IMG/VR virus record: IMGVR_UViG_2695420421_000007
Length of the DNA: 30,950 nt
Strand: one strand, 5' to 3'
From: a virus
Lineage: Duplodnaviria; Heunggongvirae; Uroviricota; Caudoviricetes
Below the pieces are notes generated by a model, which did not search any database, had not been told where the DNA came from, and saw only the letters and a list, made by a program, of their open reading frames with translations. Below are positions 12,112 to 30,950 of the stretch, in pieces (within the stretch, counting starts at the first letter, position 1; every line of letters starts with the position of its first letter). The translations under genes and the position numbers were made by a program.

Positions 12112-12171
12112 CGAATTTGACGGCTTTTAATTTTATCGGGGTGCACTGTCGCCCCGCACGAGGAAAACACG

Positions 12172-12932: not shown

Positions 12933-12946
12933 CTCAAGGGGGATTA

Positions 12947-13132: not shown

Positions 13133-13139
13133 AGGTAAG

Positions 13140-13620: not shown

Positions 13621-13623
13621 GCG

Positions 13624-14670
13624 TCAGGATGTGGGCTGGGTGTCTAACAGTGCGTAAGGGTTAAAGCGGATCACCTCTTCGCCAAGCCAGTCATTGATGT
13701 GCTTCATGGCCTCCATGACGGGCATCAGCTCGTTAATTGCGTAAACCCGCGCGGCCTTCTCCACATCACCAAACGCACTTTTTTCGCCCGGCATCGCCCC
13801 CATCAGTTGCGGCGGAACGCGGTGCGCAGCCAGCACATCATCACGGGATGCCGCCTTAACATTCATGAACTCATCCTTTGCGGTGATCTGCTGGAACGGC
13901 AAAATTTGCACCCCCTCTTTGCCCCCGTTGGGCGCATGAATGAGCACGTTTTTAAACGCACCACCACCACGTGCCCCCTGTAGCGTTTCTTTCAGGGAGT
14001 CCATGCTTTCGCGGTTTACCTGCGCTGCACCGATGTAGATGATGCACCCGGCGTGGGATCCGTTGTCGTAGTACAGTTTTCTGAACATGTCCGCCGAATG
14101 AGAAAGGCTGGCCGAGAGTAATGCGCCAAGATATTCCGGCATGCCGTAGATTTCCTGGTTAATATCCGGATTCATCAGGTGGCACACTTTGCCAGGACGA
14201 AACTGAAACGCATCCTTGCCATCCTGCACATACCACCATGATTCAAGATCGCTTCCGCGTCGCATGTATTTCGCCAGGGCGTGCCGTAATTTAAGCGGTT
14301 CGCCGAGCATATTGCTCCGAAGCTCAAGGAATGCGTTACCGAACACAAACCAGTCCAGCGCCAGCGCCGAGAAATCCTGCCGGGAAAGCAGCGGGTGCGG
14401 AATATAGCAGCCGAGCAATACATTGCGCTTAAAGTAAAGCGCAGACTGATGCCAGGACGTTTGCCGGGCAGCTCTTGCCAGACCGTACCAGTCCACCGGG
14501 GTTTCATACCACCGCCCGTTATCAGCACAGTACATATTGTCCAGCAGGTCATGCCCGGTCAGGCGGTAAGGACCATCAAATGTGAATGCACTGAGCGACG
14601 ATTCTTTCCTGAGCGCATCAGCGAGATCAATGCGTGAACTCATGCGCACTTTTTTATTTTTTCTGCTCAT
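13624..14670 (-). CDS. Q: Capsid portal protein (P2 gpQ-like, 348 aa)
   Basis: Translation parallels P2 Q as recalled from memory (WYE.PV...GLAR, LDWFVFGNAFLE, PDINQEIYGMPEYL, VIRFNPY..LDTQPT); start overlaps the P stop. Confidence 0.88.
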   Translation of the reverse strand: MSRKNKKVRMSSRIDLADALRKESSLSAFTFDGPYRLTGHDLLDNMYCADNGRWYETPVDWYGLARAARQTSWHQSALYFKRNVLLGCYIPHPLLSRQDFSALALDWFVFGNAFLELRSNMLGEPLKLRHALAKYMRRGSDLESWWYVQDGKDAFQFRPGKVCHLMNPDINQEIYGMPEYLGALLSASLSHSADMFRKLYYDNGSHAGCIIYIGAAQVNRESMDSLKETLQGARGGGAFKNVLIHAPNGGKEGVQILPFQQITAKDEFMNVKAASRDDVLAAHRVPPQLMGAMPGEKSAFGDVEKAARVYAINELMPVMEAMKHINDWLGEEVIRFNPYALLDTQPTS

Positions 14671-16421
14671 CAGAACTCCATAACCGTGAAACGCTCGTTT
14701 TCTCCTTCGCCGCCAATCGGTTCGTTAATGACAGCAAGCATGGTTGCCCACGCAAGGTCGCCGTGGCTGATCCCCCTCGCGCGGTCCGTTTCGTAAGTGA
14801 TAAAACCGCCCGGTGTTTTCACCTTACGCACGGCGTTAAAGGCCGCAACCAGCTCGCGTTCGGCGCGATCGTATTCCCACCGCCCGGCACGCATTATTTG
14901 CAGCATTTTCAGTACCAGCGACCGTTTTGATGACAGCGTGAAGGTGTAAGGGATGGCGGCGGGAAAAAACCGTTTCACTATCTGATAGACGGCATCCCCG
15001 TGCCCGCCCGTCGCATCAATGCCGATGTGTTCCACGTTGTAGCGATACGTGAACTCTTCAATAACTCTGGCCTGCTCTTCAAATTCCAGCCCCTGAACGC
15101 GTCGCGTCTCCACCGTTCTGAAACGACCACCAGGAACAGCCGGAGGAACCACCACGGACACAGCGCCGCTGTCGCCGTTACCACTGCTGCCGTTTGCGTC
15201 ATACCCAATCCATACCGGACGATTCCCCATCGGGCGGGGGGCAAAGGGTTTCCAGTCTTTCCAGTCGTCGTATCCGTCAACACCGCAGCCAATCAGGATA
15301 TTCAGGTTAAATGCCGATTCCCCTTCGCGGACAAACTCACACATATAGAGATTGCGGAACTCGTCTTCGGTGTTTTCATCACGAATTTCATCAATATCGG
15401 TGTGTTTCCAGCCGTGATTAACCACATCTTCCAGCGTGACAATTTGCCGCCACGTCCGGTCAGGGCAGATAAGCCCGTTATGCAGCGTTTTCCAGTCCAC
15501 AGAAAAACGCTGGCGTTTATGCGCGGCCTTTTTCTCGTTCCAGCGGTCGCCGTTCCAGTAGGCGTATGCCTCGTGCGTTTCGGTGGATGGCGTGGAGAAG
15601 CAGGTGCGCCGCAGTCCGCTGAGGGTTGCCATAGCGCCAGCCACCTTGCGCAGTTCAGCAAAGCGACTGACCCAGAAAAATTCATCAAAATAAAAATTGC
15701 CCGTGTAAGATTGCGCCGTCGCAGCAGAAGTGCCGAGAAAATGCATCTCTGCGCCGTTGGAGAGGATGATTTTATCGCCCCCTTTCAGCTCCACATCGAC
15801 TTCAGCCGCGGCCTTCTGAATAATGCTTTTAAACTGGAACGCCTGACGACGCGACGCAGACAAAAAAATCTGGTTACGCTGGTAAGGTTGTGCCACATCG
15901 TCACGCAGCGCCATCAGCAGTGCTTCCTGTGCAAAATACCAGGTCGCCCCAATCTGTCGGGATTTCAGGATCATCCTGTTACGTATCCCGGCTTCCCTGC
16001 AAAGCGTCAGGGAGTCAAACCAGCCCCGCTGATGCCACTCCAGCCTGCTGATGATTTTTTCCCGCAGTGCGGCAATCTGTTCCGGCGTGAAATGATTTTT
16101 GAGTTTTTTCGCCCGGCCTTTCTTTCCTGTGGCCGTCGCATCCGGCTGGCCATCATGCAGTTTTTTAAGCTGCCGGGTCAGCAGGTCTATTTCCTTAAAG
16201 TCACCACCTGTTTTATTCTGTTTTTCAGTAAGCTGGATGAGGCGCGCATCGATGGACTGCGTGACACGCTGCACGGGTGGCGTTTCATCCCACTGGTCGC
16301 GTTTTTTCCACGCATAAATCGTGTTCGGGTTTATTCCCATCAGACGTGATATTTCTGCGGGCGGATAACCCTGCCAGTAAAGTTGCCGCGCACGCTGGCG
16401 CACAAAAGCGTCCTGAATCAT
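14670..16421 (-). CDS. P: Terminase large subunit / ATPase (P2 gpP-like, 583 aa)
   Basis: Size and synteny (divergent from O, upstream of Q) match P2 gpP; translation is consistent with a terminase ATPase/nuclease. Confidence 0.88.
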   Translation of the reverse strand: MIQDAFVRQRARQLYWQGYPPAEISRLMGINPNTIYAWKKRDQWDETPPVQRVTQSIDARLIQLTEKQNKTGGDFKEIDLLTRQLKKLHDGQPDATATGKKGRAKKLKNHFTPEQIAALREKIISRLEWHQRGWFDSLTLCREAGIRNRMILKSRQIGATWYFAQEALLMALRDDVAQPYQRNQIFLSASRRQAFQFKSIIQKAAAEVDVELKGGDKIILSNGAEMHFLGTSAATAQSYTGNFYFDEFFWVSRFAELRKVAGAMATLSGLRRTCFSTPSTETHEAYAYWNGDRWNEKKAAHKRQRFSVDWKTLHNGLICPDRTWRQIVTLEDVVNHGWKHTDIDEIRDENTEDEFRNLYMCEFVREGESAFNLNILIGCGVDGYDDWKDWKPFAPRPMGNRPVWIGYDANGSSGNGDSGAVSVVVPPAVPGGRFRTVETRRVQGLEFEEQARVIEEFTYRYNVEHIGIDATGGHGDAVYQIVKRFFPAAIPYTFTLSSKRSLVLKMLQIMRAGRWEYDRAERELVAAFNAVRKVKTPGGFITYETDRARGISHGDLAWATMLAVINEPIGGEGENERFTVMEF

Positions 16422-16575
16422 TGCTCCCCCTGAGTAATTACAGGAAGATTACCCGCGCGCGAAACCGTTCTCCTTAACCCCCTGTTCTGGCCGTTTTCTT
16501 ACAACAAAAGCCCTTTGTATCAGCCTGTTACGCTTTGCCATCATGACTGAAGAACCAGTCAGAGGGGCAAAAACT
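16422..16575. promoter_or_regulatory. Divergent late-promoter region between P and O
   Basis: Intergenic gap between divergent late operons. A partial dyad TGTTCTGGCCGTTTTCTTACAACA is present, but its spacing does not match the TGT-N12-ACA activator site I recall for P2 late promoters. Confidence 0.35.
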
Positions 16576-17412
16576 ATGGCTAATGAAAAAAAGACATCCC
16601 GCAAAAAGTTTCGCGTGGCTGTCTCCGGATCAACTGTTGATGGCCGTGAAATCAGTCCGGTGCATCTGCGTGAAGCCGCCGAGAACTTCAACCCGGATGT
16701 TTACGCTGCCCGCGTGAACGTTGAGCACTATCTCTCGCCATGCCCGTCAAGCGAATTTTCCGCAATGGGCGATGTCACCGCACTGAGTACGGAAGACATT
16801 ACGGAAGGTCCGCTGGCCGGACGTACTGCGCTGTATGCAGAAATCGAACCGACCGAGCGCATGAAGCAGCTTGTCGCGGACGGCAAGAAAATCTATTCCA
16901 GTATCGAACTGCACCCGCAGTTCTCCGTTAACGGGCGCGCCTATCTGGTCGGGCTGGCGATGACCGACACCCCGGCAAGCCTGGGCACTGAGCGCCTGAA
17001 ATTCACGGCACAGCAACGTCAGGCGGTGATGACGTTCAACAGTATCCAGGGTGAAGCACCGCTTATCTCCGAAGCCATCGAGTCTGAAATCATCGAAATG
17101 GCAGAACAACGCCAGGAAGAAGGCACCCAGTGGTTTAACCGCGTAATGGGGATTATTGGTCGTGGCCGCAAAGCGGATGACGCCAGTTTCTCCCGTATTC
17201 AGGAAGCGGTGGAAAGCGTCGCAACGTCACAGGCCGACATTATCGACCGTTTTAATGCGCTGGAAACACGCCATCAGCAGGACAGCCAGAAAATCACTTT
17301 ACTGACCACGGAGCTGACAGCACTGAAGGAAAAACTGCGCACGCAGGACGGCGATCCGCAGAACCGGTTCACCGCAACGGGCGCAGCCTCCGACCAGCTG
17401 GCTGACTTCTGA
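16576..17412 (+). CDS. O: Capsid scaffolding protein (P2 gpO-like)
   Basis: Start taken at the ATG of MANEKKTSRKKFRVAVSGSTVDGREISPVHL, which parallels the P2 O N-terminus as recalled; ORF track begins at 16543. Confidence 0.82.
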   Translation: MANEKKTSRKKFRVAVSGSTVDGREISPVHLREAAENFNPDVYAARVNVEHYLSPCPSSEFSAMGDVTALSTEDITEGPLAGRTALYAEIEPTERMKQLVADGKKIYSSIELHPQFSVNGRAYLVGLAMTDTPASLGTERLKFTAQQRQAVMTFNSIQGEAPLISEAIESEIIEMAEQRQEEGTQWFNRVMGIIGRGRKADDASFSRIQEAVESVATSQADIIDRFNALETRHQQDSQKITLLTTELTALKEKLRTQDGDPQNRFTATGAASDQLADF

Positions 17413-17435
17413 TAAGACAAAGGAGCAAATTTTTT

Positions 17436-18488
17436 ATGAATCTGGTGATGTCAGATATTACCCGCAACAAGCTGGGTTGCTATATGGCGCAGCAGGCGTC
17501 GCTTAACAATATCCCGGTTTCTGCACTGGTATCGCGATTTACCGTGGAACCTGCGGTGCAGCAACGTTTTGAAAACGCCTCAAAGGATAGCACCGAACTT
17601 ACAAAAAAAATTAACGTGATCGGCGTGACCGACCAGAAAGGCGAAAAAATCCTCCTGGACACCACAGGACCGATTGCACGCACAAATACCAGTTATGACG
17701 GAACAAAACGCCGTAACCCGAATAACGTGGTTGATCTGAAAAACCGCAAATACCAGTGCGAACAGGTGAACTACGACACGTTTATTTCGTATCCGCAGCT
17801 TGATGCCTGGTCGGCACACAGCGATTTTCAGTCCCGCATCAGCGCACAGATTGCCCGACAGGTGGCACTTGACCGCATCATGATCGGTTTCAACGGCACA
17901 TCTCACGCGGATGAGTCCAACTTCAGCACCAACAAGCTGCTTCAGGACGTTAACGTGGGGTGGCTGGAGCACATCAGAACCAATGCCAGCGAGCGCGTAA
18001 TGAATGACGTGACGCTGACTTCCCGCAACATGGACAACACCGTGGCGCACGCGGGTAAATACGCGAACCCTGATGCACTGGTACAGGACGCGCGCTCATC
18101 TCTGCTGGATGAATGGCACAAGGAAGCTGACGACCTCGTGGTGATTATGGGGCGCAACCTGTTTAACTCGCTGCGTCTGCCAGTGCTGAACAGCATCAGC
18201 GGCCAGAATCCCAATGCGGAATTACTTGCCGGGCAGCTCATCCTGTCATCGCGCACCATTGGCGGGCTGGGTGTGTTCCTTGCACCGTTCTTCCCGGATG
18301 CAACGATGCTGATCACCTCATTCAACAACCTGTCGATTTACTGGCAGAAAGGTTCAATGCGTCGTCTGATGAAAGACGAACCGGAATACAACCGCATCGC
18401 CACCTACCAGTCCATCAATGACGCTTATGTCGTTGAAGACTATGGCAAGTGCGCGATGGTCACTGGCCTGAAGTTCGCCGACAGCTAA
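17436..18488 (+). CDS. N: Major capsid protein (P2 gpN-like, 350 aa)
   Basis: Blocks FTVEPAVQQ, KYQCEQVNYDTFISY, MIGFNGT, DLVVIMGR, NLSIYW, YVVEDY parallel P2 N as recalled; AAGGAG Shine-Dalgarno. Confidence 0.9.
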   Translation: MNLVMSDITRNKLGCYMAQQASLNNIPVSALVSRFTVEPAVQQRFENASKDSTELTKKINVIGVTDQKGEKILLDTTGPIARTNTSYDGTKRRNPNNVVDLKNRKYQCEQVNYDTFISYPQLDAWSAHSDFQSRISAQIARQVALDRIMIGFNGTSHADESNFSTNKLLQDVNVGWLEHIRTNASERVMNDVTLTSRNMDNTVAHAGKYANPDALVQDARSSLLDEWHKEADDLVVIMGRNLFNSLRLPVLNSISGQNPNAELLAGQLILSSRTIGGLGVFLAPFFPDATMLITSFNNLSIYWQKGSMRRLMKDEPEYNRIATYQSINDAYVVEDYGKCAMVTGLKFADS

Positions 18489-18533
18489 TCAACTCACGGC
18501 GGGCATCATGCCCGCCTGTAACGGAGAGAAAAA

Positions 18534-19334
18534 ATGATTACTCCTGCACAGCAACACTGGCAGAACGTGATGGCACAGCGCGCAGGCCGGGCGAATGAAG
18601 GTGTGGACCACGCCGCGCGTACCGCGCATGAAGAGGTGCTGTATCGTCTGCGTCTGGCACAGGCCCGGCTTAAGGGCGTACAGGCCAGAAGCGCGAAAGC
18701 CGACATCAAAAAAGCGTTGTTGCCGGACTTTTCCGGCTGGATTGAGGGAACGCTGGAGGCTGACGGCGGGCAACAGGACGAAGTGATTGCCACGCTGATG
18801 GTGTGGGCGATTGACTGCGGCGATCTTCCGCTTGCGCTGCGTATTGGTGCGTATGCGGTCCGTCACAACCTCATCATGCCGGATAACTTTGGCCGTACTG
18901 CTGCCACAGTGCTGACCGAAGAAATCTGCAATCCGGTACTGACGCAGGCCGGGACGGATGCCGACGCGGATTTGTCCGTCTTTATCGAACCACTGGACAC
19001 ACTTTGGGAAATTGTCGCCAACCAGGATATGCCGGACGAAGTGCGCGCCAAATTATGCAAGGCGTGCGCCTTTGCCCGCCGTGGCCTGAGCGATGCGGAC
19101 AGCATGGCCTCATCACTGAAGCTGCTGCGCGAAGCGATGCATCTGAACCAGAACGCAGGTGTGAAACGCGAGATTGCAACCCTTTCCCGCGCCCTGAAAA
19201 AAGCCGATTCCGCAGCCGCACCAGAAGACGCCAGCGCACAGCAGGCGCAGGACGAAAGCAGCGAAAGTAAAAAGACAACGCGGAAGCCTGCAACACGAAA
19301 AACCACCGCGACGCAGAAGGCGAAGCGCGGTTAA
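18534..19334 (+). CDS. M: Terminase small subunit / endonuclease (P2 gpM-like, 266 aa)
   Basis: Block ADMPDEVRAKL and QNAGVKREI with a basic C-terminal tail parallel P2 M as recalled. Confidence 0.88.
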   Translation: MITPAQQHWQNVMAQRAGRANEGVDHAARTAHEEVLYRLRLAQARLKGVQARSAKADIKKALLPDFSGWIEGTLEADGGQQDEVIATLMVWAIDCGDLPLALRIGAYAVRHNLIMPDNFGRTAATVLTEEICNPVLTQAGTDADADLSVFIEPLDTLWEIVANQDMPDEVRAKLCKACAFARRGLSDADSMASSLKLLREAMHLNQNAGVKREIATLSRALKKADSAAAPEDASAQQAQDESSESKKTTRKPATRKTTATQKAKRG

Positions 19335-19435
19335 CGACTGACCCCGTCAGCGGGCGGCGTGCGCGGTGTTCCGGTTTGGCTCCGTGACCGTTTACACCGC
19401 GCACCCACCGCCCGATTTTTTCAGGAGTGAACCCC

Positions 19436-19930
19436 ATGAGTATGGTTGCCAGAACTGAACCCGGACCCGCAGAGGACGACATCACCGACACCGAAGATGG
19501 CGATACCCGTATTTCAGCGGGTGCATTCTGGCCGGATATTGTGCTGCGCGAGCTGCGTCTGGCGGTACGACTGCCGGGCCGCGTGACCACCTCCCGCCTG
19601 CTGCATACCGCCACCGGGGCCGTGGCACACGTTACCCGCGAGCTGGAAGCATGGCAGCAGGAACAGCAGGCGGCTGGCCATCAGACGCTGGCCGATGTTC
19701 CGGCACCTGTAATTAACGGAGAAAGCGTCAATCTCTGGCACTGGCGCAATGCTGTTTATACCGCCACACGCGCCCTGATTCTGGAGCGTTACCGCGATGC
19801 GGACACAACGGACAAGGGCGACCGCCGGGCGGACGCACTGGATATACAGACATCGGATTTGTGGCGCGATGTGAGCTGGGCCATCTCTGACATTCTGTGC
19901 CGCCCGCGAATCTTTGCGGAGTTGTGCTGA
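19436..19930 (+). CDS. L: Capsid completion protein (P2 gpL-like)
   Basis: Synteny and size match P2 L; start taken at ATG 19436 after AGGAG (ORF track starts at a GTG at 19427). Confidence 0.8.
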   Translation: MSMVARTEPGPAEDDITDTEDGDTRISAGAFWPDIVLRELRLAVRLPGRVTTSRLLHTATGAVAHVTRELEAWQQEQQAAGHQTLADVPAPVINGESVNLWHWRNAVYTATRALILERYRDADTTDKGDRRADALDIQTSDLWRDVSWAISDILCRPRIFAELC

Positions 19931-20127
19931 TGAAAGTGAAGACACTGGAAGGCGACACCGTGGATTCGCTCTGTTTCCGGTACTACGGCACGACGCAGGG
20001 CGTCACCGAAAAGGTGCTGGATGCCAACCCCGGACTCTGCCGACAGGTATTTCTGGAAGCCGGACAGGAGGTGGAAATGCCGGAGCCGGAGAAGAAAAAA
20101 CAACGAGAGATGATACAGCTATGGTAA
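19930..20127 (+). CDS. X: Tail protein X (P2 gpX-like, 65 aa)
   Basis: Internal start MKVKTLEGDTVDSLCFRYYG...VLDANPGL parallels P2 X as recalled; ATG overlaps the L stop. Confidence 0.8.
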   Translation: MKVKTLEGDTVDSLCFRYYGTTQGVTEKVLDANPGLCRQVFLEAGQEVEMPEPEKKKQREMIQLW

Positions 20128-20423
20128 CAGGTTTTTTTCAGCGGGTGAGTGACTGGATCACCTTCTGGGCATCAGTCACAGCCACCACAATAGGCGTGAT
20201 GACCATCAGTGAAAAAATCGCCCTTGCCGGGTTGTTACTCGGTTCTCTGTCTGCATTACATGCCTGGCGACATCGCCGCCTGATGGAAACCGCCATGCAG
20301 CGTCGCAATGAACTCATCGCCAGTATCCTGGCGCAGTCAGACGCACGGCCACTTCACGACAGTGAGCGTCAGGCTCTGAACATTCTGCGGGATAACGATA
20401 CACATGATAAAGCTGCCCGTTAA
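20121..20423 (+). CDS. Y: Putative holin (gpY-position, 100 aa)
   Basis: Internal ATG overlapping the X stop; two hydrophobic segments in the N-terminal half, charged C-terminus; lies directly upstream of the endolysin. Confidence 0.65.
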   Translation: MVTGFFQRVSDWITFWASVTATTIGVMTISEKIALAGLLLGSLSALHAWRHRRLMETAMQRRNELIASILAQSDARPLHDSERQALNILRDNDTHDKAAR

Positions 20424-20952
20424 ACGTTACGCCGTAGCCGCCATTGTGGCGCTGGGGTTCTCCATTGCCCCTCACAAACTCCGGACCAGCCCGGAAGCGC
20501 AAATCCGCATTGCCACATGGGAGGACTGTCGCGCAACGCCTTACCGGGATATTGCCGGGGTAATGACCGTGGGGTGCGGCTCGACCGGGCATGTGGAAAA
20601 TCGTCTGTACACCGAAACGGAAGTCGCCGGGCGCTGGGTTAATGATATGCAACATGCAGAAAACTGCATAAATCAGAACTTCAGCGGCAACGCCATGCCA
20701 CAGTCCGCGTTTGAGGCAATGACAGATGCCGCCTTTAATCTTGGATGCAGAAATCTTATGTGGTTCAGGGATAAGAACCGTAACTACCACCGCACCACTA
20801 TCTGGAAACATGCACAGGCGCACAACTGGCCTGACATGTGCAACAGACTGACTGACTTCGTGAACAGCGGCGGCGAACGCTCACAGGGACTGGTTAACCG
20901 TCGTACTGATTTTCGTGCATGGTGCTTACGTGACACCGGAGGCCAGTCATGA
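20404..20952 (+). CDS. SAR-type endolysin, T4-lysozyme-like glycoside hydrolase (182 aa)
   Basis: N-terminal weakly hydrophobic signal-anchor-release segment (AVAAIVALGFSIA) followed by a W-E-D-C...T catalytic region resembling phage 21 R21-type lysozymes as recalled; not similar to P2 K. Confidence 0.75.
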   Translation: MIKLPVKRYAVAAIVALGFSIAPHKLRTSPEAQIRIATWEDCRATPYRDIAGVMTVGCGSTGHVENRLYTETEVAGRWVNDMQHAENCINQNFSGNAMPQSAFEAMTDAAFNLGCRNLMWFRDKNRNYHRTTIWKHAQAHNWPDMCNRLTDFVNSGGERSQGLVNRRTDFRAWCLRDTGGQS

Positions 20953-21422
20953 AAGTGCGTTACATCCTGATGATGGCACTGACCGTCCTCACGCTGCTGA
21001 CCATAACACTCTGGCAGACATTCAGACTGGGGCAGGAAGACGGACACAACCGTTATACACAGGCGCAACTGGACGATTACAGCCGGACCCTGAAAGAGGC
21101 CGGCACCATCATCAGCACCGCATCCGGTGTACTGCGTGACGTCATGACAGCGCGCCAGAACCGACAACAGGAAGGGGAAATCCGACGTGAACAGCTACGC
21201 AACGATATCACGACAGATGCATGTGCCCGCGCTGTTCCTGACGCTCGCTTTACTGAGCGGTTGCACCAGCACGCAGAACGCGTCCGCGCCGCCGCCGTCG
21301 TTCCGTTTCATCCCGGAAGGGCTGACCGCCCCCGTACTTCCCCCGCCGTTTCCGGTGACGCCATCATGGGGAAACATCGGGATATGGAGCGACAGCCTCA
21401 TGGACGCACTGGAAACCTGTAA
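20949..21422 (+). CDS. Inner-membrane spanin (LysB/Rz-like, 157 aa)
   Basis: N-terminal transmembrane segment then coiled-coil-like region; next to the endolysin, with an embedded lipoprotein gene in another frame. Confidence 0.65.
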   Translation: MKVRYILMMALTVLTLLTITLWQTFRLGQEDGHNRYTQAQLDDYSRTLKEAGTIISTASGVLRDVMTARQNRQQEGEIRREQLRNDITTDACARAVPDARFTERLHQHAERVRAAAVVPFHPGRADRPRTSPAVSGDAIMGKHRDMERQPHGRTGNL

Positions 21423-21507
21423 CGCCGATAAGCGGGCCATTGAATTACTGGAACAGCGCAGGCTGCAACGACTGAACAACGAGGACAACAACCATGCTGA
21501 AAACTGA
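21217..21507 (+). CDS. Outer-membrane lipoprotein spanin (LysC/Rz1-like)
   Basis: Internal Met gives signal peptide plus lipobox (ALLSGC), Pro-rich mature region; starts inside the LysB-like gene in a different frame and extends beyond it, as in P2 lysC. Confidence 0.6.
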   Translation: MHVPALFLTLALLSGCTSTQNASAPPPSFRFIPEGLTAPVLPPPFPVTPSWGNIGIWSDSLMDALETCNADKRAIELLEQRRLQRLNNEDNNHAEN

Positions 21508-21961
21508 TTCCCTGCGTGAAGCCATGACCCGTTCATGCCGGTGGTGTCATGCCAACCCGGAAAAATTCACCATTTTCGTGGAGAGCGGCAACATTGAAAC
21601 GACCGGAGAAACCCCATCGTTTGTTTACCGCTATCAGATAGTGATGTTTGTCATGGATTACGCCGGAGAGCTGGACGACCTCACGCTGCCGCTGCTGGCG
21701 TGGTTATCCGAAAATCAGCCACAGTTGTTGCTCAATCCGGAGCGTAATCAGGACATCAAATTTTCCGCCGTTATCAATGACGATGACAGCGCCGATCTCC
21801 TGTTTACGCTCCCCCTGCGGGAACGCGTTCGCATCACGCGCAGCAGTCAGGGCACACCGCAGGCAGAACACCTGCCGGAGCCAAAACCCCGCCTGCCCTC
21901 TTCCGAAGGCGACTGGTCGCATGTATTCCAGGATGTGACGTGGGGGGAAAGCGATGGATAA
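21494..21961 (+). CDS. R: Tail completion protein (P2 gpR-like, 155 aa)
   Basis: MLKTDSLR...VPLLAWLSENQP parallels P2 R as recalled; same length. Confidence 0.82.
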   Translation: MLKTDSLREAMTRSCRWCHANPEKFTIFVESGNIETTGETPSFVYRYQIVMFVMDYAGELDDLTLPLLAWLSENQPQLLLNPERNQDIKFSAVINDDDSADLLFTLPLRERVRITRSSQGTPQAEHLPEPKPRLPSSEGDWSHVFQDVTWGESDG

Positions 21962-22589
21962 GGCATTCACCCGCGTGGATGAAACCTTTGAGGCTATCCG
22001 CGACAGCCTGAATCAGCAGGCCATTAATAACATCGCCAGAAAGCTGGCACAGGATTTACGCCGCGCCCAGCAGGCGCGTATCCGGTCACAGAAAGCGCCG
22101 GACGGGACCGCATGGACACCACGCAGACGCCGCGTAACCCGGATACAGGAGCGCATTCGCTTTATCTGGAATAACGAAGCACGCACGCTGAAAAACTGGC
22201 ATCACGACACGGGGAAATACGGGCGAACCATCACCGGGTGGGATGAGGATAAAAACAATATCCGCACGTTTTACCGGGATGACATCGACCGTTTTCTGGA
22301 AATACGCACCCGGCGCATCAACCAGGACAGCACCAGGCGCGTCTCCATGTTCGTAAAACTGCGCACCGCCCGCTACCTGAAAGCCCGTGCAGATGCTTCC
22401 GGTGTGACGGTGGGTTACAGCGGCGTGGCCGCACGTATTGCACGCGTTCATCAGTTCGGTGAGCGCGATCAGGTTGCGCCGGGCATTTTCACCGATTACC
22501 CGGTACGTGAGCTGCTGGGTATCAGCCAGGCAGATGAGCGCCTGATTTATAACACGGTGCTGGGCCGGATTGCGGAGGCTGTACGATGA
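21954..22589 (+). CDS. S: Tail completion / virion morphogenesis protein (gpS-position, 211 aa)
   Basis: Synteny between R and V; overlapping starts and stops on both sides. Confidence 0.7.
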   Translation: MDKAFTRVDETFEAIRDSLNQQAINNIARKLAQDLRRAQQARIRSQKAPDGTAWTPRRRRVTRIQERIRFIWNNEARTLKNWHHDTGKYGRTITGWDEDKNNIRTFYRDDIDRFLEIRTRRINQDSTRRVSMFVKLRTARYLKARADASGVTVGYSGVAARIARVHQFGERDQVAPGIFTDYPVRELLGISQADERLIYNTVLGRIAEAVR

Positions 22590-23167
22590 GCGCAGAACTC
22601 ATGCGACTGCTGAGCAATATCATCCGCACCGGGATCATCTCTGAAGTTGATGAGGAATCCTGGTGCGTGCGCGTTCGCAGCGGCGAACTGGAAACAGGCT
22701 GGCTGCGCTGGAACACCACGCGCGCGGGAGACTTCAACGTGTGGTTTCCGCCATCACCAGGCGAACAGGTGGCAATTGCCTGCATCGGCGGCAACCCGGA
22801 AACCGCCATGATAATCGGCAGCCTGTGGAGTGATGCCATTCCGGCACCCGGCAAAAGCCTGAAAGAAATCGTGGTCAGCGCGCCGGACGGCGCGGTGTTC
22901 CGCTACGACGCGGACGCAGGCGCACTGAGCGCAAGCGGCATGAAAACGGCCACTTTGCAGGCATCCATCAGCGTGACACTGAACACGCCTGTCGTGGAAT
23001 GCACAGACCTTCTGAGAACAGCGACGCTTGACGTCACAAAAGGGGGAACGATGAGCGGCAATATCACGCACAGCGGCGGCGATTTCACCTCAAACGGCAT
23101 CACAGTGCATACGCATAAGCACGGTGGCGTTAAAGGTGGCAGCGATTCGACAGGAGGCCCGCAGTGA
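22586..23167 (+). CDS. V: Baseplate spike/assembly protein V
   Basis: Synteny and gpV-like size; Gly-rich C-terminus. Confidence 0.8.
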   Translation: MSAELMRLLSNIIRTGIISEVDEESWCVRVRSGELETGWLRWNTTRAGDFNVWFPPSPGEQVAIACIGGNPETAMIIGSLWSDAIPAPGKSLKEIVVSAPDGAVFRYDADAGALSASGMKTATLQASISVTLNTPVVECTDLLRTATLDVTKGGTMSGNITHSGGDFTSNGITVHTHKHGGVKGGSDSTGGPQ

Positions 23168-23514
23168 CAACCCGCTACACAGGAATGAACCCGGACGGGA
23201 CGGGAAACCTGAACGATATGGCGCACCTGAAACAGTCAGTCAGGGACATCCTGACCACCCCGCTGGCAAGCCGGGTTATGCGACGGGAATATGGCAGCCT
23301 TGTGCCTGATTTGATTGACGAACCCATGAATAACACCACGCGTCTGCAATGCATGAGTGCTACCGTGATTGCACTGACACGATGGGAACCACGCATTGCC
23401 CTGAACGCCATCGACGTTGTCTGGAAGGCAGGAGGCCACGCCGGGGTGACGCTGTCGGGCACTGTCATGCAGACCATGCAGAATGTTGAATTAACCATCA
23501 CGCTGAGGGAGTAA
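23164..23514 (+). CDS. W: Baseplate wedge protein W (gp25-like, 116 aa)
   Basis: Size and position match P2 W; start overlaps the V stop. Confidence 0.82.
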   Translation: MTTRYTGMNPDGTGNLNDMAHLKQSVRDILTTPLASRVMRREYGSLVPDLIDEPMNNTTRLQCMSATVIALTRWEPRIALNAIDVVWKAGGHAGVTLSGTVMQTMQNVELTITLRE

Positions 23515-23517
23515 ATC

Positions 23518-24414
23518 ATGCCTGCCGTTGACCTTTCCCAGTTACCGGAACCCGCCATCATCGCGGAGCCTGACTTTGAGGCAATTCTGGCTGACACAAA
23601 GGCCATGATGATTGCAGCTTATCCCGCCGAACAGCGTGAAGTCGTCTCCGCCGCACTGGAACTGGAATCGGAACCCCTGAACGTTATCGCTCAAACCATG
23701 TCGTTTCGTGAAATGCTGTTACGCCAGCGGGTCAATGAGGCCGCACGCGCCTGCATGTTGAGCCACAGCGCCGGAACAGACCTGGACAACCTCGCGGGCA
23801 ATATGAACACAAAGCGCCTGGTTATCACTCCGGCAACGGATACCACCGACGTGGTGATGGAGAACGACACCTCGCTGAGACTGCGGGCGCAGCGGGCGTA
23901 TGACGGCCTGAGTGTTGCAGGCCCGTCAGGCGCATACGAGTATTTTGCCCGCAGCGCCAGCGGTCTGGTGCGCGATGCGCGGGCCATCAGTCCGTCTCCG
24001 GCAAATGTGACGGTTTCCATCCTGTCCACTGAGGGCGACGGCACAGCAACGGAGGCGTTGCTTAATACCGTTCGCGCCGTTCTGAATGCAGAGGATACCC
24101 GCCCGGTGGCCGACCGCCTGACCGTACAGAGTGCCAGAATCGTGACATGGCGGCTGAATGCAAAACTGTACTTTTACCCCGGTCCGGAATCCGAACCTAT
24201 TCTGGCTGCGGCTGAATCGTCGTTCAGGAAGTGGCTGGCTGAGCAGGGGCTTATCGGTCAGGACGTGGCGTTGTCCGCCATTGCTGCCGCACTGCATGTG
24301 CACGGTGTGCAACGCGTGGAGATAATCGAACCCACACAGAATATGGCCATCAGCGACATACAGGCGGCGCGCTGTGAGTCATTCACCATCAGCGAAGGTG
24401 GGCGTAATGAGTAA
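23518..24414 (+). CDS. J: Baseplate assembly protein J (298 aa)
   Basis: MPAVDLSQLPEP..., RQRVNEAARA, RPVADRLTVQSA, YFYPGPESEPI, LHVHGVQRVE parallel P2 J as recalled. Confidence 0.88.
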   Translation: MPAVDLSQLPEPAIIAEPDFEAILADTKAMMIAAYPAEQREVVSAALELESEPLNVIAQTMSFREMLLRQRVNEAARACMLSHSAGTDLDNLAGNMNTKRLVITPATDTTDVVMENDTSLRLRAQRAYDGLSVAGPSGAYEYFARSASGLVRDARAISPSPANVTVSILSTEGDGTATEALLNTVRAVLNAEDTRPVADRLTVQSARIVTWRLNAKLYFYPGPESEPILAAAESSFRKWLAEQGLIGQDVALSAIAAALHVHGVQRVEIIEPTQNMAISDIQAARCESFTISEGGRNE

Positions 24415-24937
24415 TTCACTGTTACCACCATCAGCCAGCAATTTCATGCGTTGTGCCGAAGCCGTCGGAACACGCATTACAGACATTCCGGCAGACCTCA
24501 ACACGCTGTGGTCGCCGGACACCTGCCCGGTGCATCTGCTGCCTTATCTCGCCTGGGCGTTTTCCGTTGACCGCTGGGATCGCAACTGGCCGGAAGAGAC
24601 AAAGCGACAGGTGATTCGTGATGCATGGCTGATACACCGACACAAAGGAACCATCAGCGCCCTGCGACGGGCCATTGAGCCGCTGGGATACCTCATTCGC
24701 GTGTCTGAGTGGTGGGAGTTCAACGGCGAACCCGGAACATTCAAGATTGATGTTGGCACGCTGGACAGTGGCGTGACGGAGGAAATGTATCTGGAAATGG
24801 AGCGGTTGATTGCTGATGCCCGCCCGGTCAGCCGCCACATGACAGGGCTGAATATCATTCAGGAGATTCAGGGAGATATTTTCGCGGCAGCAGCAACTTA
24901 CGACGGTGAAGTCATTACCATTTATCCGGACGATTAA
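24407..24937 (+). CDS. I: Baseplate protein I (176 aa)
   Basis: From the internal Met MSNSLLPP...: WSPDTCPVHLLPYLAWAFSVDRWD, MYLEMERLIADARP parallel P2 I as recalled; overlaps the J stop. Confidence 0.88.
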   Translation: MSNSLLPPSASNFMRCAEAVGTRITDIPADLNTLWSPDTCPVHLLPYLAWAFSVDRWDRNWPEETKRQVIRDAWLIHRHKGTISALRRAIEPLGYLIRVSEWWEFNGEPGTFKIDVGTLDSGVTEEMYLEMERLIADARPVSRHMTGLNIIQEIQGDIFAAAATYDGEVITIYPDD

Positions 24938-24939
24938 GC

Positions 24940-26976
24940 ATGAGTACCACAACACGAAAATTTAAAACCATTATCACCGATACGGGTGCAAAAAAATTAG
25001 CGCAGGCAACCGCGCCAGATGGGAAACCTGTCCGCCTGACACATATGGCCGTGGGTGACGGCGGCGGTACTTTACCCACGCCAGACAGTAAGCAGACCCG
25101 TCTTGTGCATGAGGTGTGGCGACATACCGTTAATCGCGTCACCCTGGACGCAACACATCAGAACCACATTATTGCGGAGCTGGTTATTCCTCCTGAAACG
25201 GGCGGATTCTGGATCCGGGAAATTGGTGTGTTTGATGAGCACGGCGATTTGATCGCGGTAGGCAATACTGCCGAAAGTTACAAGCCAACCGTTGCCGAAG
25301 GATCCGGACGTGCACAAACATTTCGCACCATTCTGACCGTATCCAGCACTGCCACTGTGGCGCTTACCGTGGATAACACCATGGTGATGGCCACAGTGAA
25401 TTACGTGGATGACAAACTGAAAGAGCATGAACAGTCACGACGTCACCCGGACGCCTCGCTGACCGCAAAAGGCCTTGTCCAGCTCAGCAACGCCACCAAC
25501 AGCACGTCTGAAACGCTGGCAGCGACACCAAAAGCCGTTAAGGCAGTAATGGATGAAACGAACAAGAAAGCCCCATTAAACAGCCCGGCACTGACCGGAA
25601 CGCCAACAACACCAACTGCGCGACAGGGAACGAATAATACCCAAATCGCAAGCACGGCTTTCGTTATGGCTGCGATTGCCGCACTTGTAGACTCTTCGCC
25701 TGATGCACTGAACACACTGAACGAGCTGGCGGCGGCGCTGGGCAACGACCCGAATTTTGCGACCACCATGACTAACGCGCTTGCGGGTAAGCAACCGAAA
25801 GATGCCACTCTGACGGCGCTGGCGGGGCTTGCTACTGCGGCAGACAGGTTTCCGTATTTTACGGGGAATGATGTCGCCAGCCTGGCAACCCTGACAAAAG
25901 TCGGGCGGGATATTCTTGCGAAATCGACCGTTGCCGCCGTTATCGAATACCTCGGTTTACAGGAAACGGTAAACAAGGCTGGTAACGCCGTGCAAAAAAA
26001 TGGCGATACGTTGTCCGGTGGACTTACTTTTGAAAACGACTCAATCCTTGCCTGGATTCGAAATACTGACTGGGCAAAGATTGGGTTTAAAAATAATTCG
26101 GATGCAGACACCGATTCCTACATGTGGTTTGAAACAGGCAACAACGGCAATGAATATTTCAAATGGAGACACCGCATCATTGGCACCCGGCCTAAAGACC
26201 TGATGAATCTTAAATGGAATGCTTTGTCTGTTCTTGTTGAAGCCCTTTTCAGCAGTGAAGTGAAAATATCGACAGTCAATGCACTGAGGATATTTAATTC
26301 ATCTTTTGGTGCCATTTTTCGTCGTTCTGAAGAATGCCTGCATATCATCCCTACACGAGAGAATGAAGGGGAAAATGGTAATATAGGGCCACTACGCCCC
26401 TTTACGCTTAATCTCAGAACTGGCCGGATAAGCATGGGGCATGGTCTTGATGTTACAGGGGATATATTTGCAAACCGTTTTGCAATTAACAGTAGTACCG
26501 GCATGTGGATTCATATGCGTGACCAGAATGTTATTTTGGGACGTAATGCGGTATCCACTGATGGTGCTCAGGCTTTGCTCCGTCAGGACCATGCCGACCG
26601 CAAATTTATGATTGGCGGTCTGGGAAATAAGCAATTTGGCATCTACATGATTAATAACTCAAGGACAGCCAATGGCACCGATGGTCAGGCGTACATGGAT
26701 AATAACGGGAACTGGCTTTGCGGCTCGCAAGTTATTCCCGGCAACTATGGCAATTTTGATTCCAGATATGTGAAAGATGTTCGACTTGGTTCACAGCAAT
26801 ATTATGGAGTGAACAACTGGCAAACATGGAATTTTCAGTGCCCGTCAGGCTATGTACTGACGGGGATTAACGTACAGGATACCGGAAAAAACTCTGCCGA
26901 TAATATTGCAGGCGTTCATTACAGGCCAGTGCAAAAGTATATAAATGGCACTTGGTATAATGTGGCGAGTATTTAA
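24940..26976 (+). CDS. H: Tail fibre protein H (678 aa)
   Basis: N-terminal and central portions of P2 H type; the central block ([23 protein letters not shown]...) is shared with lambda-type Stf; divergent C-terminal receptor-binding region. Confidence 0.88.
25470..25960. repeat. Direct repeat copy 1 (inside H) of a roughly 490-bp tail-fibre segment
   Basis: Matches 30460..30950 at a constant offset of 4990 bp; about 95 percent identical by eye over the last 380 bp. Confidence 0.8.
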
Positions 26977-26977
26977 T

Positions 26978-27217
26978 ATGATGCACTTAAAGAACATAAA
27001 AGCAGGTAATGCTAAAACAGTGGAGCAGTATGAGTTAACAAAGAAGCACGGAGTCATCTGGCTTTACTCTGAGGACGGAAAAAACTGGTATGAGGAAGTG
27101 AAGAACTTTCAGCCAGACACAATAAAGATTGTTTACGATGCAAATAATATTATTACGCAGTGTGAACACCGTTGGCAAATCGGCATTCGTGGAGGCTGTC
27201 GGTCGGGCGAGCGATGA
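26978..27217 (+). pseudogene. tfa: Tail fibre assembly gene, N-terminal fragment only (truncated tfa)
   Basis: [11 protein letters not shown]...[24 protein letters not shown] matches the N-terminus of E. coli Tfa proteins as recalled; reading frame runs into the J-like fragment and ends without the Tfa C-terminal half. Confidence 0.6.
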
Positions 27218-28268
27218 TGCGGAAGGTTACCTGGATTTTTTCAAAGGAGAGATAGGGAAAACACATCTGGCTCAGGAGCTGTGGACGCAGATTGATAACG
27301 GTCAGCTTGCGCCTGACCTGGCTGAAATCAGGACGTCCATTACGGATGTCAGCAATGAAATCACGCAGACTGTCAATAAGAAACTGAAAGACCAGAGTGC
27401 GGCAATCCAGCAGATACAGAAGGTTCAGGTTGATACAAATAATAATCTGAACAGCATGTGGGCTGTGAAGCTGCAACAGATGAAGGACGGACGCCTTTAT
27501 ATTGCGGGTATCGGTGCCGGTATTGAGAATACGCCAGCAGGAATGCAGAGTCAGGTGCTGCTGGCGGCAGACAGGATTGCGATGATTAATCCTGCGAATG
27601 GCAACACAAAGCCGATGTTTGTTGGTCAGGGCGATCAGATATTCATGAACGACGTGTTCCTGAAACGCCTGACGGCTCCCACCATTACCAGCGGCGGTAA
27701 TCCTCCGGCATTTTCCCTGACACCGGACGGAAAACTGACCGCTAAAAATGCAGATATCAGTGGCAGTGTGAATGCGAACGCCGGGACGCTCAACAATGTC
27801 ACAATTAATGAGAACTGTCAGATTAAGGGGAAACTGTCAGCCAACCAGATTGAAGGCGATATAGTCAAAACAGTGGGTAAGGCTTTTCCGCGGGACTCCC
27901 GGGCACCGGAGCGGTGGCCATCAGGGACCATTACCGTCAGGATTTATGACGATCAGCCTTTTGACAGGCAAATTGTTATTCCGGCGGTGGCATTCAGCGG
28001 CGCTAAACATGAGCGGGAGAATAACGATATTTATTCGTCATGCCGCCTGATAGTACGGAAAAACGGTGCTGAAATTTATAACCGTACCGCGCTGGATAAT
28101 ACGCTGATTTACAGTGGTGTTATTGATATGCCAGCTGGTCGCGGCCACATGACGCTGGAGTTTTCGGTGTCAGCATGGCTGGTGAATAACTGGTATCCCA
28201 CAGCAAGTATCAGCGATTTGCTGGTTGTGGTGATGAAGAAAGCCACCGCAGGCATCAGTATCAGCTGA
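27129..28268 (+). pseudogene. J: C-terminal fragment of a lambda J-like tail tip/host-specificity gene
   Basis: From about 27171 the translation parallels the lambda J C-terminus as recalled ([78 protein letters not shown]); the N-terminal bulk of J (about 1100 aa in lambda) is absent. Confidence 0.75.
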
Positions 28269-28287
28269 ATTTTATAACCCATATACG

Positions 28288-28314
28288 GGCGCCAGAAATG
28301 GCGCCTTTTTTATT
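28288..28314 (+). terminator. Rho-independent terminator downstream of the J-like fragment
   Basis: GGCGCC-agaaat-GGCGCC hairpin followed by TTTTTTATT. Confidence 0.6.
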
Positions 28315-28335
28315 GCAGAAAAGCGAGAGGTAATT

Positions 28336-28935
28336 ATGCGTAAAGTTTGTGCAGCAATTTTGTCCGCAGCCATCTGTCTGTCCGTATCCGGTGCGCCTGC
28401 ATGGGCGTCTGAACATCAGTCCACACTGAGCGCGGGGTATCTTCATGCCCGTACGAACGCTCCCGGCAGCGATAATCTGAACGGGATTAACGTGAAATAC
28501 CGTTATGAGTTTACGGACGCGCTGGGGCTGATTACGTCCTTCAGTTATGCCAATGCTGAGGATGAGCAAAAAACGCACTACAGCGATACCCGCTGGCATG
28601 AAGATTCCGTGCGTAACCGCTGGTTCAGCGTGATGGCGGGGCCGTCTGTACGCGTGAATGAATGGTTCAGCGCGTATGCGATGGTGGGTGTGGCTTACAG
28701 CCGTGTGTCGACTTTCTCCGGGGATTATCTCCGCGTAACTGACAACAAGGGGAAAACGCACGATGTGCTGACCGGAAGTGATGACGGTCGCCACAGCAAC
28801 ACGTCTCTGGCGTGGGGGGCTGGCGTGCAGTTTAACCCGACCGAATCCGTGACCATTGACCTTGCTTATGAAGGTTCCGGTAGTGGTGACTGGCGAACGG
28901 ATGCATTTATTGTTGGTATCGGATACCGTATCTGA
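28336..28935 (+). CDS. lom: Lom outer-membrane protein (Ail/Lom family, 199 aa)
   Basis: Signal peptide then beta-barrel-type alternating pattern with C-terminal ...GIGYRI; lies after J as in lambda. Confidence 0.85.
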   Translation: MRKVCAAILSAAICLSVSGAPAWASEHQSTLSAGYLHARTNAPGSDNLNGINVKYRYEFTDALGLITSFSYANAEDEQKTHYSDTRWHEDSVRNRWFSVMAGPSVRVNEWFSAYAMVGVAYSRVSTFSGDYLRVTDNKGKTHDVLTGSDDGRHSNTSLAWGAGVQFNPTESVTIDLAYEGSGSGDWRTDAFIVGIGYRI

Positions 28936-29040
28936 CAACAGACGCCGATTTATCTTCTGTAAATATTGTTATGATACGCAGGTTCATCCACCTTATGGGG
29001 TGAACTGCGTTTGAGGAAACGTAAAGTTACACTGTCCTGA

Positions 29041-29073
29041 AGCCCGTGGCGTCACTGCTGCGGGCTTTTTTTA
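29041..29073 (+). terminator. Rho-independent terminator-like hairpin between lom and stf
   Basis: AGCCCG-N14-CGGGCT followed by TTTTTTT, about 15 bp upstream of the stf start. Confidence 0.5.
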
Positions 29074-29086
29074 TTGGTGGAAAAGT

Positions 29087-30950
29087 ATGACAGTAAAAAT
29101 TTCTGGCGTGCTTAAAGATGGCACAGGAAAACCAGTACAGAACTGCACCATTGTGCTGAAGGCCAGACGAACCAGCAGCACGATGGTGGTGAACACGGTG
29201 GCCTCTGAAAATCCGGATGAAGCCGGACGTTACAGCATGGATGTTGAGCATGGTCAGTACAGCGTCACCCTGCTGGTTGAAGGTTTTCCGCCTTCACATG
29301 CCGGGACCATTACCGTCTATGAAGGTTCCAGACCAGGTACGCTGAATGATTTTCTCGGTGCCATGACGGAGGATGATGTCCGACCGGAGGCACTGCGCCG
29401 CTTTGAGCAGATGGTGGAAGAGGTGTCACGTAACGCCTCCGCGGTTGCACAGAATACGGCAGCCGCGAAAAAATCAGCCAGCGAGGCGGCAACTCATGCA
29501 ACCGATGCTGCAGCCTCAGCACGTGCCGCCAGCACGTCAGCCGGACAGGCCGCGTCGTCGGCTCAGTCAGCGTCTTCCAGCGCAGGAACGGCATCGACAA
29601 AGGCCCGTGAAGCAGCAAAAAGTGCTGCTGCAGAGTCATCAAAAAGCGCGGCAGCTACCAGCGCCAGTGCCGCGAAAACGTCAGAAACGAATGCCGCAGC
29701 ATCACAAAAATCGGCAGCCACTTCTGCATCCACAGCGACCACGAAGGCGTCAGAAGCTGCCACCTCGGCACGGGGTGCGGCGGCCTCAAAAGAGGCAGCG
29801 AAATCTTCAGAAACGAATGCATCATCAAGTGCCAGTAGTGCAGCTTCCTCGGCAACGGCGGCAGGAAATTCCGCGAAGGCGGCAAAAACGTCCGAGACGA
29901 ACGCTAAGTCTTCTGAAACAGCAGCGGGACAGAGCGCCTCAGCTGCGGCAGGTTCAAAAACAGCGGCTGCATTATCTGCCAGTGCCGCGTCAACAAGTGC
30001 CGGGCAGGCCTCAGCCAGTGCCACCGCCGCCGGAAAATCGGCAGAAAGCGCCGCATCATCCGCTTCAACAGCCACAACGAAGGCTGGCAAAGCCACTGAG
30101 CAAGCCACTGCAGCAGCGAGGTCTGCTTCTGCAGCAAAAACCTCTGAAACAAATGCAAAGACTTCAGCAGACAATGCTGCTTCCTCTAAGGCAGCAGCCG
30201 CATCGTCAGCCAGTTCAGCGGCGTCATCGGCATCATCTGCGTCTGCTTCAAAAGATGAGGCGACCAGACAAGCGTCAGCAGCGAAAGGTAGTGCCACGAC
30301 AGCAACAACGAAAGCATCAGAGGCGGCAGGCAGTGCGACGGCTGCATCTCAGAGCAAAGTTGCTGCTGAATCCGCGGCAACGCGCGCCGAGACAGCAGCA
30401 AAACGGGCAGAGGATATTGCATCCGCCGTGGCGCTGGAGGATGCGAGCACGACGAAAAAGGGGATAGTACAGCTCAGCAGTGCGACCAACAGCACTTCCG
30501 AGTCACTGGCGGCAACGCCAAAAGCGGTTAAGGCGGTAATGGGTGAAACGAACAAGAAAGCGCCCTTAAATAGTCCTGCACTGACCGGAACGCCAACAAC
30601 ACCAACTGCGCGACAGGGAACGAATAATACCCAAATCGCAAGCACGGCTTTCGTTATGGCTGCGATTGCCGCCCTTGTAGATTCGTCACCTGATGCACTG
30701 AACACGCTGAACGAGCTGGCTGCGGCGCTGGGCAACGACCCGAATTTTGCGACCACCATGACTAACGCGCTTGCGGGTAAGCAACCGAAAGATGCCACCC
30801 TGACGGCGCTGGCCGGACTTACTACTGCGGCAGGCAAGTTTCCGTATTTTACGGGGAATGATGTCGCCAGCCTGGCAACCCTGACAAAAGTCGGGCGGGA
30901 TATTCTTGCGAAATCGACCGTTGCTGCCGTTATCGAATACCTCGGTTTAC
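29087..30950 (+). CDS. stf: Side tail fibre protein Stf (lambda-type), 5' partial; continues past the window end
   Basis: ATG at 29087 with GGTGG upstream; N-terminus MTVKISGVLKDGTGKPVQNCTIVLKARR...GFPPSHAGTITVYEGSRPGTLNDFL parallels lambda Stf as recalled, followed by an Ala/Ser/Thr-rich repetitive region and the conserved [20 protein letters not shown] block. No stop before 30950. Confidence 0.85.
   Translation, partial: MTVKISGVLKDGTGKPVQNCTIVLKARRTSSTMVVNTVASENPDEAGRYSMDVEHGQYSVTLLVEGFPPSHAGTITVYEGSRPGTLNDFLGAMTEDDVRPEALRRFEQMVEEVSRNASAVAQNTAAAKKSASEAATHATDAAASARAASTSAGQAASSAQSASSSAGTASTKAREAAKSAAAESSKSAAATSASAAKTSETNAAASQKSAATSASTATTKASEAATSARGAAASKEAAKSSETNASSSASSAASSATAAGNSAKAAKTSETNAKSSETAAGQSASAAAGSKTAAALSASAASTSAGQASASATAAGKSAESAASSASTATTKAGKATEQATAAARSASAAKTSETNAKTSADNAASSKAAAASSASSAASSASSASASKDEATRQASAAKGSATTATTKASEAAGSATAASQSKVAAESAATRAETAAKRAEDIASAVALEDASTTKKGIVQLSSATNSTSESLAATPKAVKAVMGETNKKAPLNSPALTGTPTTPTARQGTNNTQIASTAFVMAAIAALVDSSPDALNTLNELAAALGNDPNFATTMTNALAGKQPKDATLTALAGLTTAAGKFPYFTGNDVASLATLTKVGRDILAKSTVAAVIEYLGL
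30460..30950. repeat. Direct repeat copy 2 (inside stf) of the tail-fibre segment
   Basis: Matches 25470..25960 at a constant offset of 4990 bp; truncated by the window end. Confidence 0.8.

Follow-up and report, generated by a model that had tools for sequence, protein, structure and literature searches.

The two near-identical blocks carried by the tail-fibre genes H and stf very probably belong to two separate Shigella sonnei prophages, their apparent spacing being a product of assembly and the block that they share ending in an invertase crossover site. The window, that is, the whole stretch of 30,950 nucleotides analysed here, is the public record CXFA01000045.1 (30,950 bp; assembly GCA_001257695.1); record bases 19087-30950 are identical to it except at 27155, where the record has N and the window shows A. 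With high confidence, the window represents a draft scaffold made by joining two contigs, 1..27154 and 27156..30950, across this single N. Copy 1 would lie in the H gene of a P2/P88-like prophage integrated next to btuC, and copy 2 in stf of a lambdoid prophage, which is found near trpA in complete genomes. The features of the window are the following.

1..45, no strand: end of an IS630-family element, start of contig 1, a typical short-read break point
24940..26976, + strand: gene H, coding for the 678-aa tail fibre of the P2/P88-like prophage
25467..25960, + strand: repeat copy 1, H residues ~176-340, end of the constant (shaft) part, with PF03406 (fibre repeat) spanning H residues 173-213
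25940..25965, + strand: gix-like invertase crossover site of 26 bp, TTATCGAATACCTCGGTTTACAGGAA, within the H reading frame at the end of the block
26978..27154, + strand: tail-fibre assembly gene tfa (P2 G), its first 59 codons only, end of contig 1
27155, no strand: scaffold gap, N in CXFA01000045.1 and A in the window, a base that fits neither parent sequence
27156..28268, + strand: 3' end (last ~370 codons) of the lambdoid tail-tip gene J, start of contig 2
28336..28935, + strand: lom, gene for an Ail/Lom outer-membrane protein
29087..30950, + strand: 5' part of stf (621 codons), with the PF08400 N-terminal domain, then Ala/Ser-rich repeats, then the shared block
30457..30950, + strand: repeat copy 2, residues ~457-621 of Stf, the lambdoid side tail fibre, cut off at the contig end
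30930..30950, + strand: stf copy of this crossover site, limited to its first 21 bp and ending at the last base common to two inversion isomers

To define the repeat, a repeat search and a base-by-base comparison were used. The original prediction had described a direct repeat of roughly 490 bp at a constant offset of 4990 bp, about 95% identical (about 14 mismatches) over its last 380 bp, and had proposed an exact pairwise alignment extended past 30950. Alignment within the window confirmed the repeat: 25467-25960 in H and 30457-30950 in stf aligned ungapped at offset 4990, a value that is a property of the scaffold and not of one sequenced molecule, with 457 of 494 positions identical (92.5%). 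The estimate for the last 380 bp was close, since 364/380 positions were identical (95.8%, 16 mismatches). Identity was 81.6% over the opening 114 bp, and upstream of 25467 the match dropped to ~25-35%, which is the random level. The longest perfect runs measured 95, 87, and 77 nt, and the similarity is well beyond chance. The stf copy is truncated at the contig end (30950); in complete relatives, the homology continues for another 31 bp, up to what corresponds to H position 25991, so that the block measures ~525 bp in total. Both copies lie in the reading frame of their own gene and encode the same residue at 157 of 164 codons, most of the differences being held by third codon positions.

The two genes are of different types. 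H is of the P2 gpH type, with PF12571 (tail-collar fibre domain, N-terminal) at residues 6-152 (E = 3.8e-56), and sits after the baseplate genes J and I, in the gene order of P88. The stf gene is of the lambda Stf type, with PF08400 (prophage tail-fibre domain, N-terminal) at residues 1-134 (E = 2e-69), and the J-lom-stf order of the window is also seen in the related loci L010-L019. The part corresponding to contig 1 (1..27154) carries nlpC-btu genes and the P2/P88-like prophage. Window positions 6000-27154 match phage P88 (genus Xuanwuvirus, P2-like, Peduoviridae) in gene order at ~96% identity, with 78% of the 6000-30950 query covered, including H, tfa, and the ParM-type partition genes, whereas the receptor-binding tip of H differs from that of P88. 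A PADLOC scan of the prophage cargo ORFs gave weak coiled-coil matches only. Since contig 1 ends at tfa codon 59, the prophage is cut off at this codon; in the related locus L004, tfa runs on to 175 aa.

In complete genomes, each half of the window corresponds to a separate prophage, at 99.97-100% identity. Positions 1-20759 are 100.000% identical to CP180280.1, and 14940-27154 are 100.000% identical to CP026836.1, where an intact tfa is followed by an invertible segment, a 195-aa invertase, and the P2 tail genes. Positions 27156-30950 correspond, at 99.92-99.97% identity, to a lambdoid locus found in S. sonnei genomes, 53G (HE616528.1) among them, in which the remainder of J and a complete series of lambdoid tail genes lie upstream of the matched part. 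In the complete S. sonnei genome CP044151.1, both copies are present base for base as in the window, with the same 37 differences and on the same strand, ~516 kb apart. Given the N join and this distance, the 4990-bp spacing, the fusion of tfa to a J fragment, and the predicted 5-kb deletion are very probably artefacts. The window's two ends are themselves assembly break points, one at the IS630-family end and the other at an inversion branch point. Like the window's source, which has one N between non-overlapping contigs, the scaffold L014 (CXDS01000012.1, with a similar CX-prefix accession) has single-N joins, which lead to positions within the same J gene; unlike CXFA01000045.1, the window showed A for N, masking the gap. 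The case calls for caution: one ambiguous base shown as A concealed the gap and gave rise to an apparent single locus, two fusion ORFs, and the prediction of a 5-kb deletion, all of them very probably spurious.

We then looked for the tfa'/J' junction elsewhere. It was found in 0/5426 complete E. coli genomes, in none of the GTDB representative genomes, and in no metagenome contig. An exact look-up of three candidate fusion ORFs across the junction gave no match, probably because the N of the record gives X in the product. When the 79-aa tfa-J fusion ORF was used in a homologue search, no protein covered its tail, and tfa codon 59/60 appeared as a recurrent break or misjoin point. With the J fragment as query, partial J products were retrieved in the thousands, and these did not inform on the exact breakpoint.

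A real adjacency would mean that the tfa of a truncated P2-like prophage had been fused to the interior of a lambdoid J by illegitimate recombination, with genuine direct repeats at a distance of 5 kb as the result; RecA could then recombine them into an H-stf (myovirus-siphovirus) hybrid fibre gene. The scaffolder did join the contigs, which is usually a sign of some read-pair links, and S. sonnei genomes are IS-rich and prone to rearrangement. Against this, the junction base is N, so that no read sequence crosses 27155, the join shows no microhomology, and both breakpoints (tfa codon 59/60 and J) are usual places for short-read assemblies to break. The junction was also absent from every other assembly searched, that is, complete E. 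coli genomes, GTDB representatives, and metagenomes, as well as from proteins, while complete genomes with identical flanks keep both prophages intact ~516 kb apart, and the locus order of CP044151.1 would need a deletion of >4 Mb to give it. We therefore consider a real adjacency very unlikely and infer that the join at 27155 is spurious and not a genuine junction interrupted by a small gap. The uninterrupted sequenced DNA that a local direct repeat needs between its copies is broken by the N at 27155. The RecA-mediated deletion of the tfa-J-fragment-lom segment proposed originally is not supported, as the copies are not shown to lie in one locus and the halves on either side of the single-N gap match separate prophages.

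Several origins of the junction were also considered. IS-mediated deletion was rejected, there being no IS sequence at the join, as was an invertase acting at a pseudo-site, the junction being unlike the crossover site. No identical second tfa copy that could have caused an assembly break was found among the fetched loci. A 516-kb tandem duplication was dropped after the N at 27155 was found, and all the mechanisms for a real junction fell for this reason. Scaffolders normally need read-pair links to join contigs such as those ending in tfa and J, which leaves a small probability for a real structural variant of this one isolate, with a short unsequenced gap.

Recent gene conversion between the H and stf copies within the genome, put forward originally as occurring within one locus, is an extremely improbable source of their high identity: although the three long perfect runs and an identity climbing from 82% to 96% along the block form the mosaic expected from past recombination, the same 37 differences stand base for base in CP044151.1, where the copies are ~516 kb apart, meaning no change in this lineage, outside sequences are closer to single copies (Citrobacter phage Shae_phiSM to the H copy at 94.7%, and P88 H to the stf copy at 94.6%) than the window copies are to each other (92.5%), and the differences are mostly synonymous, as expected from old divergence under purifying selection.

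Two separate prophages with a common type of fibre joint thus remain the preferred reading, and the end of the block bears on how such a joint may work. The reverse-complement core of the crossover site at 25940-25965 matches the native gix core, as quoted in PMC5175349, at 18/20 positions, and window positions 25933-25991 are an 88% match to the sequence annotated as 'G-segment boundary' in phage Mu. In stf, the loci L010 and L013 are inversion isomers, diverging immediately after ...GGTTTAC; contigs of independent assemblies stop at the site, L031 and L033 at the same base as the stf of the window, and L030 has 11 N there. The second, inverted site, which in this type of cassette delimits the alternative tips and their chaperone genes, would lie beyond the scaffold gap and the contig end; it is present in L009, L010, and L013, and in L004 and L007 it is interrupted by an IS3-family element. 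Cassettes of the Gin/Cin/Pin/Hin type are expected to have a serine invertase gene (Resolvase and HTH_7 domains) alongside, and a 195-aa invertase adjoins the P2-like cassette in L004-L009. In the S. sonnei lambdoid cassette, the neighbouring invertase gene is a 60-aa stump only, and another invertase probably acts in trans on this segment. The inversion mechanism is read from these related loci, the window itself being without an invertase gene and a second site. Short-read assemblies of S. sonnei repeatedly break at the crossover site, which suggests that inversion may have been active in the sequenced cultures.

The ~525-bp block encodes the final ~165 residues of the constant shaft of the fibre and ends in the in-frame gix-like site. 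A serine invertase of the Gin/Cin/Pin family may flip the DNA downstream of this site, so that alternative receptor-binding tips and their chaperones would be fused to the same shaft. The original proposal overlooked the crossover site in which the block ends, where tips would be swapped by site-specific inversion and not by RecA. Such a system is known from the G segment of Mu (gix and Gin), with its relatives, the C segment of P1 (Cin) and the P segment of e14 (Pin) (PMC5175349; PMC4272514). As in the Mu G segment, the 26-bp site marks the transition from the constant to the variable part of a fibre gene, and isomers are seen in relatives; unlike in Mu, the invertase gene and the second site fall outside the window.

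Finally, we compared the block with that of other phages. It matched P2-like phages at 91-95%, lambdoid side tail fibres at 69-79%, and the P1 'constant segment Sc of gene S' at 70%. Its spread over unrelated phage groups fits horizontal exchange of fibre modules. The original reading of the two genes as a P2-type H and a lambda-type stf with a homologous block is supported, the N-termini being PF12571 and PF08400. The P2 tail-fibre genes H and G are reportedly homologous to Mu S/U, P1 S/U, and lambda stf/tfa. As in that system, a P2-type H and a lambdoid stf have an internal block in common, whereas identity is higher here (92.5% at the DNA level), because H and stf carry the same subtype of invertible cassette; classical P2 itself is not known to have an invertible segment. 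The shared shaft-to-tip block is already known and belongs to textbook phage genetics, being common to P2-like, lambdoid, P1, and Mu phages, and it may be conserved across these unrelated phages as a joint for exchangeable tips.

We observed that positions 25467-25960 in H and 30457-30950 in stf match without gaps at an offset of 4990, with 457 of 494 bases identical in a base comparison (92.5%), so that a repeat does lie where the original prediction had put one. Identity reaches 95.8% over the last 380 bp (364/380, 16 mismatches), close to the 95 percent estimated for that part, and is 81.6% over the first 114 bp; left of 25467 the two sequences agree only at the random level. Each copy keeps the reading frame of its gene, third codon positions make up the majority of the 37 differences, and the residue is the same in 157 of 164 codons. 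The gene names H and stf were also right, because the H N-terminus carries a P2-type domain (PF12571) and that of Stf a lambdoid one (PF08400). The features are:

45-2930, nlpC, btuD, btuE and btuC
~3100-27154, P2-like prophage of the P88/Xuanwuvirus type
24940-26976, H (678 aa), containing the first copy
from 26978, tail-fibre assembly gene tfa, 5' part
27156-28268, lambdoid tail-tip gene J, last ~370 codons
28336-28935, lom
from 29087, lambda-type side tail fibre gene stf, 5' part, containing the second copy, frame open at the window end

The P2-like prophage holds genes for integrase, replication, ParM-type partition, portal, terminase, capsid, lysis and baseplate, then H and the start of tfa. 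Its partition genes (ParM/StbA-type and Plasmid_stab_B, 10836-12111) are also found in phage P88. Small cargo ORFs lie at the prophage ends, 3123-4161 and 12172-12696 (a DUF1640-like one of 184 aa, and others of 166 and 174 aa), and gave weak coiled-coil matches only in a PADLOC scan. The stf shaft contains an Ala/Ser-rich 33-nt repeat family (29462-30163; five copies, with 67-82% identity to the reference copy), which produces spurious long alternative-frame ORFs at 29373-30467 (+) and 29563-30297 (-); several public records (L012, L017, L030, L032) annotate the latter as a gene of 244 aa.

In both genes, the shared block codes for the end of the constant fibre shaft. It terminates in TTATCGAATACCTCGGTTTACAGGAA, a gix-like invertase crossover site lying in frame, at 25940-25965 and again at 30930-30950, where the contig end cuts it; the reverse-complement core of this site agrees at 18 of 20 bases with the native gix core CTGTAAACCGAGGTTTTGGA (as quoted in PMC5175349). 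In phage Mu, the annotated 'G-segment boundary' matches the final 59 nt of the block at 88%, and this layout of shaft and crossover site is the classical one of the Mu G, P1 C and e14 P segments. The block is found in P2-like phages (91-95%), in the lambdoid side tail fibres of 4W (78.7%) and Gifsy-2 (68.6%), and in the P1 'constant segment, Sc, of gene S' (69.6%). Haggard-Ljungquist et al. reportedly described it in 1992 as common to P2 H and lambda stf. Module sharing between fibre genes, as originally proposed, is correct and already known; what was concluded from it for one locus is not supported. A stretch of ~89 nt within the block (25678-25766), encoding a motif of 11 protein letters, also occurs in 241 mycobacteriophage records (minor tail proteins) at 76-81% identity.

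Past 27155, the sequence shifts from P2-like to lambdoid genes: the tfa frame is no longer tfa past codon 59, and J starts mid-gene. CP026836.1 matches window 14940-27154 at 100.000% identity, and its tfa extends to 175 aa, with an invertible segment, a 195-aa invertase and the P2 tail genes behind it; 1-20759 is 100.000% identical to CP180280.1, and 27156-30950 is 99.92-99.97% identical to a Shigella sonnei lambdoid prophage locus near trpA, including that of strain 53G (HE616528.1). Base 27155 agrees with neither parent sequence, and no microhomology was found at the join. The public record CXFA01000045.1 (NCBI, assembly GCA_001257695.1), which carries the partial Stf product and has the window's exact length of 30,950, equals the window over its bases 19087-30950 at all positions except 27155, where an 'N' in the record stands against an 'A' in the window. 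Therefore, the window is a scaffold in which contigs 1..27154 and 27156..30950 are joined across a one-base placeholder. Real adjacency of tfa and J in this one isolate is highly improbable; the junction occurs in 0 of 5426 complete E. coli genomes, in no GTDB representative genome and in no metagenome contig. The other window ends fit the two-contig scaffold: the window starts 45 nt within an IS630-family element and stops at the last base common to both inversion isomers of the stf segment, where contigs of two independent assemblies also stop and a third has an N run. The ORFs crossing 27155, 26978-27217 (79 aa) and 27129-28268 (379 aa), are artefacts.

Other public short-read assemblies break or are misjoined within two bases of the tfa break point, and the draft scaffold CXDS01000012.1 (L014) shows single-N joins of like kind that lead inside the same lambdoid J. 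Codon 59/60 of tfa (27148-27156, ...AATAATATTATT(GT)) is a recurrent place of such breaks or misjoins (P0004, P0007, P0010), and two 1.1-kb contigs (L028, L029; ~960-970) loop from it back to just past the crossover site. In L014 (5732-5740, 9066, 15266), the J-lom' of a different phage is joined to this J via a single N. S. sonnei drafts with the CX prefix are credited to Holt et al. 2012 (PMC5447701), and we infer that CXFA01000045.1 and CXDS01000012.1 belong to that set. The IS630-family end at 1-45, beside nlpC, marks the contig start; the element is present in L022, L024 and L025 and absent from E. coli O26 and from L020, L021 and L023.

A serine invertase flips fibre-tip DNA in e14 and P2-like prophages (PMC4272514). 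Here, such an enzyme would flip the DNA 3' of the crossover site, joining alternative receptor-binding tips and their chaperones to one constant shaft. The genomes L010 and L013 of S. sonnei represent inversion isomers whose sequences part exactly past ...GGTTTAC. We infer that the site was active in the sequenced isolate; the contig break at this branch point suggests a mixed population. Since the lambdoid locus retains a 60-aa invertase stump (L010 15591-15773) and the gene adjoining the P2-like cassette in relatives is full-length (195 aa; L004 15423-16010), the lambdoid segment may be flipped in trans by the enzyme of the P2-like prophage. Despite the stump, both isomers exist, and contigs of short-read assemblies end at the site. 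In some relatives, an IS3-family element (L004 14137-15293; L007 15404-16559) interrupts the right-hand crossover site of the P2-like segment and probably locks H in one orientation, which agrees with contig 1 running unbroken across the H site (25940-25965).

The complete genome CP044151.1 holds both copies, each base-for-base identical to its window counterpart; they lie on one strand, separated by ~516 kb. Because they keep the same 37 mutual differences, the sequences give no sign of recent homogenisation. Moreover, phages from other hosts come closer to each copy than the 92.5% between the two: the H copy is 94.7% identical to Shae_phiSM, and the stf copy 94.6% identical to P88 H. These values and the unchanged differences speak against recent gene conversion, as originally suggested, and the 'N' at 27155 and the ~516 kb against placement in one locus. 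No sequenced molecule establishes the 4990-bp spacing or a 'tfa-J-fragment-lom' interval, and the proposed 5-kb RecA deletion is left without a substrate, its spacing resting on the scaffold gap. One locus, recent conversion and a 5-kb deletion substrate were what made the finding interesting, and all rest on the gap hidden in the window; recombination between the true copies would instead remove or duplicate roughly half a megabase.
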